A stretch of DNA of 64,000 bases from a virus, in the IMG/VR virus record IMGVR_UViG_3300027861_000010; one strand, written 5' to 3'. This document shows, in pieces, positions 30,538 to 36,687 of the stretch. Under the pieces are notes generated by a model. That model did not search any database. It worked only from the letters and a program-made list of their open reading frames with translations, and was not told the DNA's origin. The translations under genes were made by a program, and so were the position numbers. The stretch's first letter is position 1, and each line of letters starts with the position of its first letter.

Positions 30538-30882
30538 ATGGCAAGTCGCTACGGGAAGAAGTTTGATAAGGTACTTCGTGATCTTCGCAAGGAGTGCCCA
30601 ATCGAAGCTCCCATTCGTGTTGTGACCAAGGATTTAGGTAAAGCGAAGCTGTGTGGTTGCTGTATTGCGTACCTGAGGCCCAGCGGCAAAATCGAAAGAT
30701 TTGTGATCGAGATCGACAAGGCAATGTCGATCGCGATGGCTATTGATACGTTGCTGCACGAGTGGGCTCACGCTTTGGATAAAGAGGCCAACGGTATTCC
30801 CATGGAGCCGCACAGAAACAGTTGGGGCGAGTGTTACGCTCGAGTCTGGAGAGTTTACGTAAATACTCCATCAGATGCTTGA
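30538..30882 (+). CDS. HEXXH Zn-metallopeptidase-like protein (SprT/IrrE-like)
   Basis: DTLLHEWAHA, PHRNSWG. Confidence 0.7.
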   Translation: MASRYGKKFDKVLRDLRKECPIEAPIRVVTKDLGKAKLCGCCIAYLRPSGKIERFVIEIDKAMSIAMAIDTLLHEWAHALDKEANGIPMEPHRNSWGECYARVWRVYVNTPSDA

Positions 30883-30907
30883 CACCGGTATTTTCCTGTA
30901 TTAAGTT
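30879..30907 (+). promoter_or_regulatory. sigma70-like promoter
   Basis: TTGACA-N17-TAAGTT. Confidence 0.7.
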
Positions 30908-30912
30908 GGCTG

Positions 30913-31096
30913 CCGAAGGCTGTTCGTTTCGATCTAAGACACTGGCGTGACAGGCCTCAAGGACGGATACTGGAACATTTAACCAGGACACTCACCCCCG
31001 AAACCCGACTAGGGAGAGACAGGCAGGATGTGAGTACAGTCTTCATATTTGGCCACTTAAAGACCATCTGCTCCACGGCAGGTGGTCTTTTTTTTT
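30913..31096 (+). ncRNA. Candidate small RNA (~185 nt; CsrB/RsmZ-like or 6S-like)
   Basis: No ORF; bounded by promoter and terminator; six GGA in 30961-31028 including CAGGATG; ends pair (GAAGGCTGT/ACAGTCTTC). Confidence 0.6.
31059..31096 (+). terminator. Rho-independent terminator
   Basis: AAAGACCATCTGC-tccacg-GCAGGTGGTCTTT plus T6. Confidence 0.9.
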
Positions 31097-31184
31097 AGCC
31101 ATTGGTTGGGTTTGACTTGGTCACCCAAACAGGTTACAAATAGTGCTTCCAAATTCTGGATTTTAACCATCAAGGAAGTCCTTT

Positions 31185-32006
31185 GTGAAACCTCCCCTTG
31201 TTTCAGGCATTCTCCCCTTCGCTGATCCGAAGCGGTTGAATTTAGTTCGGAAGGCCGTCAACAACTTCATCAGGCAGCAATACACGCCCTATGAGCTTGT
31301 TGTTGTCAACGGTACCGACGTCGATGTCCTGACCAATACCGAGATGGACTCAGAGATGTTTCGACAGGCAGGATGCCATGTCATGGAGATTCGCGTTCCG
31401 CCGGGTCTGAATGCCGCAACCATGCGAAATCGCGGCATCCAAGCTGCCCACGGTGATTGGATCTTTCCCATTGACGACGATGATTGGTGCCACCCTCAGC
31501 GTTTGCTGTTCCAGATGGCCCACCGTGTCGGCGACCATCCTTGTCTTCTCCGTTACCAGCTCCGAGTGGATGTTTCACACGTCCTGAAGGCTGCTGCGGA
31601 GGATCATCCTGATGGGGCAGCTAAACCGCTGCTTCATTTACTTCGGGTTGAGGATGGAATCCCATCAACAATCTTGTTCCCGCGTTTGATCAACTCTGAT
31701 GGAGCCCTTTGGCTTTATGACGAGGATCTGAACATTGGCGAGCACGACGAGCTTCTGGCCCGAATGCGGCGAGACGGAGCTGCCCCGGTAGTGTGTGATA
31801 ACATGCACAACACGTTTGTTAACGGAATGCAATGGCCGATCTTGTCTATCGCCATGTACCACACGAATAATGAACTGACTCATGAGCAGTTCTTTTACAA
31901 ACTACCGCAGCCTGTAGACCGCAGCGTTGTTCCTCAGGGTTTGACCCAGAGCGACATGAACCAGCTGAGAGTTGTGCTTCAGTCCTATAACTTCAGGATC
32001 GGATGA
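31185..32006 (+). CDS. Glycosyltransferase family 2-like
   Basis: VSGILP, QQYTPYELVVV, RNRGIQAAHGDWIFPIDDDDW. Confidence 0.8.
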   Translation: MKPPLVSGILPFADPKRLNLVRKAVNNFIRQQYTPYELVVVNGTDVDVLTNTEMDSEMFRQAGCHVMEIRVPPGLNAATMRNRGIQAAHGDWIFPIDDDDWCHPQRLLFQMAHRVGDHPCLLRYQLRVDVSHVLKAAAEDHPDGAAKPLLHLLRVEDGIPSTILFPRLINSDGALWLYDEDLNIGEHDELLARMRRDGAAPVVCDNMHNTFVNGMQWPILSIAMYHTNNELTHEQFFYKLPQPVDRSVVPQGLTQSDMNQLRVVLQSYNFRIG

Positions 32007-32033: not shown

Positions 32034-32813
32034 ATGGCTTGGTACAACGAAGATCAACCCGAAACATTGAATTTCATGGTGGTAGGAAACTGCCATTCGG
32101 GACATGATCTGCTGCAAGCTTGCTTGTCAGCACATCCGACGATGGTTTGTCACGGAGATGTTCTGCATCCTGACGAGGCACTTCGCAAGGAAGAGCACGA
32201 AGCCTACTTCGGCGATTCCGGTAAGGTTTCTGATTGGTATCAGCCTAAAGACCTGAGCGTTGAGCAATACCTGAATAACAAAATCTTCGACAATATGTTG
32301 TTCGATGAAAAGGCAGTAGGTGTTCGACTGTCTTATGACAATTTTCTCAAGGCGGACCTGTGGGACTACGCCGAGCAGAAATGCAGACAAGGTGATTTTT
32401 GCATCCTGCATGTGGCTCGAAATCCTGTGGCTTGTTTTGTTGACTACATGGCGGAGAACCGACGGAAAGGGTTGTTGGATTTTCCGGTCACTCCGAGCTT
32501 TGGACATTCAGTATCCCTGGAGCCTGAGGAGCTGACTCATTTTGTAAGAGATCACTTAGCTACTGAGCTTAAGGTTAATCGGCTGTGTGGCGATCGAGCC
32601 GTTATTCCCTATCATGAGCTTCTGTTAGACTCCAAAGGCACGTTGCAGCAGATCTTCAAGTTTTTGGATTTGCCTTACAGTCCGGCGTGTGTGCCCAACA
32701 GGAAGAAGATTCACACAAGGGACATGAAAAGCCGAATCTCAAATTGGCATCATCTTAAAGCGGAACTTCCAATTGACGTACGCGACGTGCTGGAAAGCCC
32801 AACACTGTTCTGA
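32034..32813 (+). CDS. Stf0-like sulfotransferase-fold protein
   Basis: FMVVGNCHSGHDLLQACLSAHP..CHGD (divergent RSGST), ILHVARNP, IPYHELL. Confidence 0.6.
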   Translation: MAWYNEDQPETLNFMVVGNCHSGHDLLQACLSAHPTMVCHGDVLHPDEALRKEEHEAYFGDSGKVSDWYQPKDLSVEQYLNNKIFDNMLFDEKAVGVRLSYDNFLKADLWDYAEQKCRQGDFCILHVARNPVACFVDYMAENRRKGLLDFPVTPSFGHSVSLEPEELTHFVRDHLATELKVNRLCGDRAVIPYHELLLDSKGTLQQIFKFLDLPYSPACVPNRKKIHTRDMKSRISNWHHLKAELPIDVRDVLESPTLF

Positions 32814-32823
32814 GCAGGGAAAC

Positions 32824-33108
32824 ATGGCAAACGAAAAAACAGAACTGACTAAGCGGGAGTTGCAGGTGGTAGCTCTGATCGGTCAGGATAAGAAGTACAA
32901 AGAAATCGCAGAAGAGTTGGAGCTTGGTTATGAAACCGTAAAGACCTACGCTGCTCGAATCCGTAAAAAACTGGGTGTTGGCTCTAAGGTTGCCGTAGCA
33001 CTTTGGGCTCAACAGCACGGCCTGATAACAAACGAGGCCCAGAAAAACATGGACGCAATGTTGAGCGAAAAACCGTGGCTTGCACAAGGTAATAAAGATG
33101 AAGAATAA
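32824..33108 (+). CDS. Stand-alone LuxR/GerE-type HTH regulator
   Basis: LTKRELQVVALI..YKEIAEEL..ETVKTY..RIRKKLGV. Confidence 0.9.
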   Translation: MANEKTELTKRELQVVALIGQDKKYKEIAEELELGYETVKTYAARIRKKLGVGSKVAVALWAQQHGLITNEAQKNMDAMLSEKPWLAQGNKDEE

Positions 33109-34643: not shown

Positions 34644-34663
34644 CAAATCGCTATACTGCCTCA

Positions 34664-34865
34664 GTGGCTTTACCGCAGGTACCGGTAGGTTAGGAGTCGA
34701 GGTGCGGCTAGGAGAGCCAGCGGTTCTCGGCGGGACGGTTGTGTGAGTGAAAAACGAGCAACCGGAGGAGTGTCGGTCGTACCTTCCAGACCGGCATAAG
34801 TTCGGTGGCTTAGCCGCTGCCGGATACTGGGCTCGAGGCAGGGGATCTCGAGAAGTCACTTTTTT
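34664..34865 (+). ncRNA. Candidate structured non-coding RNA or long leader
   Basis: About 200 nt without a plausible ORF, after TCGACG-N18-TATACT (34628-34657); at least five hairpins; ends in a T-run. Confidence 0.35.
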
Positions 34866-35399: not shown

Positions 35400-35966
35400 A
35401 TGAGCCTGATCTCGACGACAGATATTCCGGACATCAAACAACTTCAGCTCTACACCGCGGTCAAAGACCTGGAAAAGCGATCGGCTGTCCGAATGTCTGG
35501 GTTACTGCAAGCGACAAAATCAGGCCATTTGATTGTGGGAGTTCCGACAGCCCTAGTCCGTGGTGTTTTTGACGCCATGGCTGAGCCAGGTATTTCCCTT
35601 CCCAATTCCGTAGACGGCGGAGCCCTTCGAGCTGGTGTCGTCGTCATGACTCCGGACGAGTTAGAGTCAATCGGCGGCCCAGACAAGGTCACTGAACGCG
35701 GCAAACAATTCCCGTATCACATGGGTGAACTGGAAGAGACTCCAGCACGCAATTGGCCTGGAGTTACCGTTTGCTGGCATTTGCGAATCAAGTCACCCGA
35801 GCTGGGTAAGCTGCGAAGAACCTATGGCCTTCCGACGAAATTATCGGGGAGTAACGATTTTTCGATCGTCGTGGCCTGCCGTAAGTCTGGAGTTTTGGCT
35901 GCTAATTCGACTAGCAAGTCGATTGAGCAGCAGTCGCAGACTCTGCCGGACTGGACTCGTCCTTGA
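35400..35966 (+). CDS. 2H-phosphoesterase-like protein lacking both catalytic His
   Basis: Spacing of AGVVVM...[16 protein letters not shown]...FSIVVA resembles HxT..HxT 2H proteins recalled from phages; His absent. Confidence 0.45.
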
Positions 35967-36132
35967 GCAAAGCGTCGGCTATTGCTCGAGCAACTTCGTC
36001 TCGATGGACAGCGACATCCCGTGGGGCGTCAATGCCCAACCGAACTTTGTCGCCGCGAATCTCGACGACGGTCAAAGTGACGTTGTCGCCGATCGTAATG
36101 CTTTCGCCCTTTTTCCGACTAAGAACCAACAT
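35911..36132 (-). CDS. csrA: Carbon storage regulator CsrA/RsmA
   Basis: [47 protein letters not shown]; GGAG RBS; start at 36132. Confidence 0.95.
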
Positions 36133-36175
36133 GGTTAAATCTCCATCCATGAAATTGAAATACCACACCCGTTTA

Positions 36176-36204
36176 ACGTATACTCTTTTGGGTGACAGGT
36201 CAAT
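36176..36204 (-). promoter_or_regulatory. sigma70-like csrA promoter containing the GTCACCCAAA box
   Basis: Minus strand TTGACC-N17-TACGTT. Confidence 0.55.
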
Positions 36205-36219
36205 AAAGGTTGTACTGGA

Positions 36220-36687
36220 ATGAATTCGCTAACGCAACACCTACCCTGCAAATCTTCAAGCCCCGTACTTGATCAATTTTTGCCCGCTGAGAAGCAGGCA
36301 GAAGAAGACTGGTACATAGGCTCTTCCGACATTGAAGGTCAAGGCGTATTTGCCGGAAAGGATTACGAGGTTGGCGATACAATCGGCTTGGCTATGACGC
36401 CCGGCGACGAGGATGAATGGTCGGCTAAAATCTGGAATTTGACAACCTTGGCTCGTCACTGCAATCATCAAAGCAAGAACAATGTTGAAGTGAAGAAGGT
36501 TGACGGCAAGTTCGATCTGGTTGCATTGCAGCCGATCAGCCAAGATGATGAGCTGGTGTCAGATTACTATCAGGTGTCGCGAACAATGGGTCCACATTCC
36601 CGAATGATGTGGGACGGCAAAGATGTTCCGGTGACTGATCTCGACGGTTACATTGAGAAGGAAAGAGACGAAGATGAAAATACTTGA
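36220..36687 (+). CDS. SET-domain protein-lysine methyltransferase-like
   Basis: [35 protein letters not shown]; EKQA at aa 24-27 precedes the domain. Confidence 0.8.

Follow-up and report, generated by a model that had tools for sequence, protein, structure and literature searches.

The closest described counterparts of the RNA reported here are RsmZ/RsmY/RsmX and CsrB/CsrC (Rfam RF00166, RF00195, RF02144, RF00018 and RF00084), sponges that are transcribed from independent non-coding genes with a promoter and an intrinsic terminator, in genomes that also encode a CsrA-family protein. They have 4–22 GGA sites, mostly located in loops or single-stranded linkers. GacA/UvrY-dependent sponge promoters possess an upstream TGTAAG-N6-CTTACA box. 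CsrA may also be bound by base-pairing sRNAs, McaS for example; the interplay between CsrA and sRNAs has been described (PMC10729762). The consensus site of RsmE and CsrA is (A/U)CANGGANG(U/A) (PMC6849547), and SL2, the highest-affinity stem-loop of RsmZ, has the loop sequence CAUCAAGGACGAUG (PMC13287468). A single consensus site on a short hairpin is also found in mRNA leaders, such as the hcnA Shine–Dalgarno hairpin and the fliC/hag leader CAAGGAUG (PMC6849547; PMC13287468; bioRxiv 10.1101/2025.07.22.666180). On the viral side, csrA genes in phages have been catalogued (PMC7366521), and our literature search found no report of a phage-encoded CsrA-binding RNA.

The window analysed here, a stretch of 64,000 nt, comes from a large uncultured phage whose genes are nearly all on the plus strand. 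This phage is of an uncultured marine type of about 200 kb that carries csrA, and relatives of the protein flanking the RNA locus are found on 150–200-kb viral and marine metagenome contigs. The locus lies in a neighbourhood of sugar-modifying enzymes and an exonuclease (Table 1); a tRNA/tmRNA scan returned none. The gene immediately upstream, used below as an anchor, encodes a 114-aa protein of an uncharacterized family, seen here on phage or marine-metagenome contigs only. In the alignment of this family Cys20, Cys39, Cys42, the HEWAH motif and His92 are invariant. The SprT-like match is sub-threshold. The protein is likely to be a small zinc metallopeptidase-like protein.

Table 1. Coordinates of the RNA gene, of its neighbours and of the csrA-related features in the window (L007 is the nearest diverged relative of the window RNA)
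Feature	Position	Strand	Remark
Upstream anchor gene, 114-aa HExxH (HEWAH) protein	30538..30882	+	weak SprT-like match
P1 promoter, TTGACA-N17-TAAGTT	30879..30907	+	-35 30879-30884, 17-nt spacer, -10 30902-30907
Predicted non-coding transcript, ~183 nt	30914..31096	+	presumed start ~7 nt past the -10 box; end at the U-tract
Closing stem P1, 5' strand GAAGGCTGT (GAAGGCUGU)	30915..30923	+	pairs with 31036-31044
Invariant 5' stretch UUCGUUUCGAUCUAAGACACUGG, 23 nt	30923..30945	+	identical in L007
Core motif UCAAGGACGGA, CsrA/RsmE consensus site	30957..30967	+	sole element in common with the B-clade RNAs
Hairpin CUGG(AACAUUUAA)CCAG	30970..30986	+	68-nt structured insertion at the tip in L007
Helix P5 (ACUCAC/GUGAGU) around the conserved CUAGGGAGAGA	30990..31035	+	two compensatory pairs in L007
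Closing stem P1, 3' strand ACAGTCTTC (ACAGUCUUC)	31036..31044	+	
Intrinsic terminator, 14 pairs, 4-nt loop, U9 tail	31059..31096	+	paired part 31059-31090
P2 promoter of the downstream GT2 gene, TTGACT-N17-TACAAA with GTCACCCAAACAGGTTAC dyad	31112..31140	+	
WCANGGANGW at ribosome-binding sites	1435, 16211, 29156, 31170, 34881, 44944 (and 15168)		
Phage csrA, 73 aa, PF02599 E 1.3e-25, intact	35911..36132	-	4.8 kb downstream of the RNA

A first-pass annotation of this DNA had described a promoter, about 185 nt without an ORF and a 13-bp terminator. The promoter is present, with the TGA stop codon of the anchor gene (30880–30882) lying within its −35 hexamer. The pattern TTGACA-N17-TAnnnT occurs once in the 64-kb window, compared with 0.28 occurrences expected. 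It is conserved throughout the 15 loci that have the RNA, and relatives lacking the RNA do not have it. Its −10 box, TAAGTT, agrees with TATAAT at just three of six positions, which explains why a consensus promoter scan does not list it. The terminator also stands, with a stem of 14 pairs instead of 13. As predicted from these signals, P1 is a sigma-70-type promoter and the segment that follows is an independent, terminated non-coding RNA gene, whose RNA would be made from its own promoter and end at a strong intrinsic terminator. No match to the TGTAAG-N6-CTTACA box was found within two mismatches near 30879, and the phage RNA need not use such a box.

The non-coding nature of the unit is supported by L007, the nearest diverged relative (flanking protein 75% identical), which retains the promoter, the closing stem, helix P5 and the terminator. 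The two RNAs differ by indels of 68, 2, 2 and 1 nt, which disrupt every frame, so that no ORF is conserved. Pairing in the closing stem, helix P5 and the terminator reaches 97.6% in the window type and L007, versus 29–49% in slid controls, with four compensatory pairs, two of which are in the closing stem. Together with the 68-nt insertion at a hairpin tip and the other indels, these covarying helices indicate the behaviour of a structured RNA, not of a coding one. The paired ends that the first-pass annotation had reported are present. In the fold of the window RNA the G residues of most GGAs are paired. It should be noted that 31010–31035 and its L007 equivalent share a conserved Shine–Dalgarno-like CUA(G/A)GGAGAGA, followed by a start–stop pair in the 3' strand of P5 (AUG-UGA in the window, AUG-UAG in L007), which is either a coincidence or a minimal start–stop ORF. 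A small ORF after AAGGA was also considered and rejected, being not conserved, with an AUG there only where the Y of the core motif is U.

The length of about 185 nt and the paired ends had also suggested a 6S-like decoy of RNA polymerase. 6S RNA (RF00013) is indeed similar in length and in its paired termini, but no 6S-family match was obtained at E ≤ 10 in the window, nor in 13 related loci; the window RNA folds into a multi-branched structure, and the family has either this or an apical-loop hairpin, without the rod and conserved central bubble; and RNA length varies across the family from 126 to 319 nt. We reject this alternative, which we consider very improbable.

The unit was then followed in about 100 related loci, gathered with the upstream HExxH protein as anchor. 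Fifteen distinct phage contigs, all from marine metagenomes, have it behind the HExxH gene; they form two sister clades, and the order is always the same: the P1 promoter over the anchor stop codon, approximately 7 nt, the closing stem, a body of 95–280 nt, the terminator and the P2 box. More than 25 further related loci lack the unit, and there the anchor gene is followed directly by P2, sometimes after a bare terminator (L008, L014, L026 and L028). All loci with the RNA fall, in the flanking-protein tree, into two clades of good support that belong to a single group, and the ‘no RNA’ label needs one change only, so that a single gain is compatible with the distribution. In L014–L017, where the RNA is missing, an ORF of about 75 codons lies between P2 and the GT2 gene, approximately 100–370 nt past the anchor gene, and this intergenic spot therefore appears to be a hotspot for the gain and loss of small genes.

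Two further explanations bear on this arrangement. The RNA could be no more than the untranslated 3' end of the upstream operon with its terminator, functionless in itself, since the unit starts at the anchor gene's stop codon and a bare terminator occupies the spot in the four loci named above. The persistence of the full promoter, of the covarying helices and of the motif described below through otherwise complete sequence turnover argues against this, and we find it an improbable explanation. Alternatively, the order promoter, structured RNA, terminator and gene is that of a leader or attenuator, in which transcripts from the P1 promoter would bypass the terminator, perhaps controlled by CsrA, and run on into the operon of the GT2 glycosyltransferase. 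By inspection, GGCAGGAUG (31022–31030) could pair with the 5' half of the terminator (31066–73), and the ribosome-binding site of GT2 is UCAAGGAAGU. L007, however, does not retain this pairing, the terminator (14 pairs and U9) is very strong, and a separate conserved P2 promoter lies between it and GT2, which it serves in all RNA-less relatives; a box of the type TTGAC-N17/18-TACAA with an internal dyad precedes GT2 in more than 40 related loci, whether the RNA is present or absent. The attenuator thus also seems improbable, if marginally less so than the untranslated tail. The phage RNA differs from the mRNA-leader sites of CsrA/RsmE, to which it is similar in having one consensus site on a short hairpin, in that it terminates with no ORF following and the gene that comes next is served by a promoter of its own. 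As a side remark, the P2 box may be an operator of a small GerE/LuxR-type HTH protein encoded at 32773–33108 (PF00196, E 8e-15).

We interpret the unit as an independent RNA gene, and it belongs to no described family. The Rfam search proposed with the first-pass annotation gave no family at gathering score in the window, and nothing relevant at E ≤ 10 in 30700–31300 or at E ≤ 1 in the 13 related loci. Blastn against phage GenBank records found no match, and exact-pattern scans for two window-type stretches found none in IMG/VR and a metagenome collection. The divergence is also large within the family: neither an nhmmer profile nor a covariance model (R1) built from the B clade picks up more of the window RNA than an 11-nt loop (E of about 0.1 in 301 nt), and the putative homology between the window-type and B-type RNAs therefore rests on synteny, the promoter, the position of the motif and the tree. 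A copy of the B-type hairpin was found neither in G001 nor in G002, two phages without the RNA. The RNA belongs to an undescribed, fast-diverging family at one locus, in one subclade of uncultured marine ~200-kb phages. In some relatives we also observed an extra structured insert of about 95 nt between the promoter and the CsrA-site hairpin (module A; L019:1884-1984, L030:566-655 and L033:1585-1683, and also in L021 and L035). Its closing stem covaries, it contains a UAGNAGGUACGNCUA hairpin and the motifs GGGAUAAAC and GAUAAG, and in L033 and L035 it terminates in its own U-tract. Module A has no Rfam match.

What do these RNAs share? In a de novo k-mer count over 13 distinct RNA bodies, the most widely shared 8-mer is TCAAGGAC, which is found with at most one mismatch in 11 of the 13, versus a maximum of eight in shuffled sequences. 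It belongs to a core motif that reads U-C-A-(A/G/C)-G-G-A-(C/U)-G, that is UCA-N-GGA-Y-G, and that is 42–60 nt past the −10 box wherever the RNA has a single module. In the window, UCAAGGACG at 30957–30965 fits the RsmE/CsrA consensus and is conserved in 11/13 RNA bodies. The variation falls mostly on the two degenerate positions of the consensus, and more rarely on consensus positions past the GGA; L007 has an A for the closing G, and the window RNA and L034 have a G at the final position. In L005, whose flanking protein is 99% identical, GGC is read at 30961–30963 with CGGAUAC kept, on a low-coverage contig where an error is possible. The loop of RsmZ SL2 and its closing pairs have exactly the sequence of the motif (GGGCCAUCAAGGACGAUGGUCC; loop UCAAGGACGA; PMC13287468), and the motif variant UUCACGGACGAA is one base off the hcnA ligand UUCACGGAUGAA.

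B-clade RNAs carry the motif at the tip of a hairpin, GAnUU-UC[AAGGAY]GA-c-AAUC, whose stem differs among lineages. In this hairpin 76% of cells are paired, compared with 32–47% in slid controls, eight pairs are changed on both sides and none of 500 shuffles reaches the covariation score; these numbers are indicative, the alignment being fitted to the model and including two spurious rows. A scan of IMG/VR for the B-type loop TTCAAGGAYGACAATC returned 55 matches, all due to chance and inside coding sequence (FKDDN). Across the family, selection has kept the promoter, the closing stem, the terminator and UCA-N-GGA-Y-G, the last being a predicted high-affinity site for CsrA-family proteins.

The first-pass annotation had seen the RNA as GGA-rich, and this holds in part. 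Six GGA triplets are present (30961, 30965, 30972, 30986, 31013 and 31026), together with CAGGATG at 31024–31030. Six GGAs in 68 nt is the maximum of the window, reached by 0.036% of 68-nt windows. Nevertheless, dinucleotide shuffles of the RNA body contain 4.9 GGAs on average and 32% of them reach six, so that the clustering is largely a matter of base composition, and GGA is not enriched in the family (47 observed versus 48.4 expected from the local plus-strand rate). L007 keeps three of the six (30961, 30986 and 31013). CAGGATG, in which the first-pass annotation had seen the CsrB repeat consensus, is not kept there. Three members, L018, L024 and L025, have a single GGA, that of the motif. 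In the absence of enrichment, and with several members having one GGA, the sponge capacity would be low. The RNA is probably a small RNA that binds CsrA through one or a few sites, and not a multi-site sponge in the manner of CsrB.

The phage RNA resembles the Rsm/Csr RNAs in several respects and departs from them in others. Like theirs, its gene stands by itself between a promoter and an intrinsic terminator, and its genome codes for a CsrA-family protein as well. It also has at least one high-affinity-type (A/U)CANGGANG(U/A) site, at a hairpin apex in the B clade. In contrast, it has one conserved site instead of many, it has no covariance-model match, it is phage-borne and its body turns over very quickly. 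Because it fails the model match and has not the many conserved GGA sites, we do not file it as a member of the Rsm/Csr families; by analogy, these are nonetheless the RNAs that it would work most like. Our preferred explanation, to which we give an even chance, is that of a low-valency CsrA-binding small RNA, acting as a decoy or antagonist or having its own activity switched by CsrA. It would bind a CsrA dimer, of the phage or of the host, through the core site, and the window copy may add one to three auxiliary GGAs (30965, 30986 and 31013); the outcome would be either a low-valency decoy/antagonist or a CsrA-responsive riboregulator.

The predicted fold of the window RNA introduces a complication. 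In the energy model with the covarying helices enforced, 30961–30967 pairs with 30928–30935 and has an unpaired probability of 0.05–0.24, and the core CsrA-type site may thus be masked in this modelled fold. The three sequences at hand agree equally well with another fold, the small hairpin CAG..UC[AAGGACG]GA..CUG. The partner segment belongs to the invariant 5' stretch, part of which (AUCUAAG-CAC) is also found in L011. That this stretch is identical in L007 and able to pair with the GGA core suggests the switched version of the proposal, in which CsrA bound to UCAAGGACGGA would free the 5' stretch otherwise paired with it.

The same stretch also speaks for another class of mechanism. The RNA could be an sRNA acting by base-pairing or through another protein (Hfq, ProQ, the ribosome or a phage factor), with the AAGGA loop as a seed or Shine–Dalgarno mimic and the 23-nt 5' stretch as a functional seed. 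This stretch is conserved far above its surroundings, the B-clade block GAnUUUUCAAGGAYGACAAUC exceeds a CsrA footprint, the motif is similar to the phage's own ribosome-binding sites, and a U-rich tract and a terminator are features that the RNA has in common with Hfq-type sRNAs. On the other hand, we found no convincing complement in the window (three 11-mers, all intragenic and none at a translation start), hence no target for the invariant stretch there, and in an RNAduplex target search with whole RNAs the shuffled controls scored better. Moreover, conservation outside GGA falls mainly on the C and G by which the hexaloop is closed in complexes with RsmE, and not on the positions of a Shine–Dalgarno sequence. 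We hold this explanation to be possible but rather doubtful. The two mechanisms might also be combined: the phage RNA shares with the CsrA-binding base-pairing sRNAs its few GGA sites and a separately conserved single-stranded stretch, and could be dual-function.

We now return to the preferred reading, the low-valency CsrA-binding RNA, and to its putative partner. The phage CsrA that had been located about 5 kb away is confirmed as an intact gene (Table 1). An 86-aa ORF on the opposite strand (35963–36223, +) matches no family and most likely just shadows csrA, which accounts for the open frame. Two RNA-less phages also have csrA, in two copies each, one of which is syntenic, and the RNA is therefore no obligate csrA partner but an accessory that one subclade has. 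The ‘complete Csr switch’ of the first-pass annotation goes beyond what co-occurrence shows: the RNA gene, csrA and a canonical CsrA/RsmE site are all there, but csrA is also carried where the RNA is missing, and the presence of the one does not follow that of the other.

A second structured RNA of the same genome, adjacent to csrA (34663–34865), is like the present one non-coding, GGA-containing and csrA-linked. The 10-mer CGGATACTGG is found in the window at 30964–30973 and 34821–34830 only (0.12 expected); it is not conserved in the homologues of the csrA-adjacent RNA in L001 and L003. The csrA-adjacent RNA differs in being kept in phages without the present RNA, and the two have no other detectable homology. 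Module A gives no link between them either, as its covariance model (R2) has no match in the window.

The motif WCANGGANGW is found 24 times in the window, compared with 10.5 ± 3.4 expected. About seven copies are at phage ribosome-binding sites (for example ACAGGGAUGU and ACAGGGACGU), among them those of GT2 (31170) and of genes starting at 1450, 16225, 29171, 34896 and 44958, and the region of the csrA translation start (about 36133–36160, −) contains UCAUGGAUGG. This suggests a phage-internal CsrA regulon with autoregulation of csrA. Since WCANGGANGW occurs at phage ribosome-binding sites, the resemblance of the motif to the phage Shine–Dalgarno context is the main confounder. A more ambitious proposal, which we regard as unlikely, is a self-contained Csr circuit in which the phage CsrA, the CsrA-site-like ribosome-binding sites and an RNA made from an early promoter would time phage translation in infection, with the RNA soaking up CsrA or being switched by it.

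This RNA family is a clean case in which the turnover of the body is almost complete while a 9-nt protein-docking site and the expression signals are kept. If the RNA binds CsrA, the virus would carry both halves of a global post-transcriptional switch. For the regulation of defence there is a precedent in Serratia, where Rsm controls CRISPR-Cas (PMC8450108). If the proposal is true, it would become testable how phages time their own translation or rewire the carbon, motility and defence regulons of the host.
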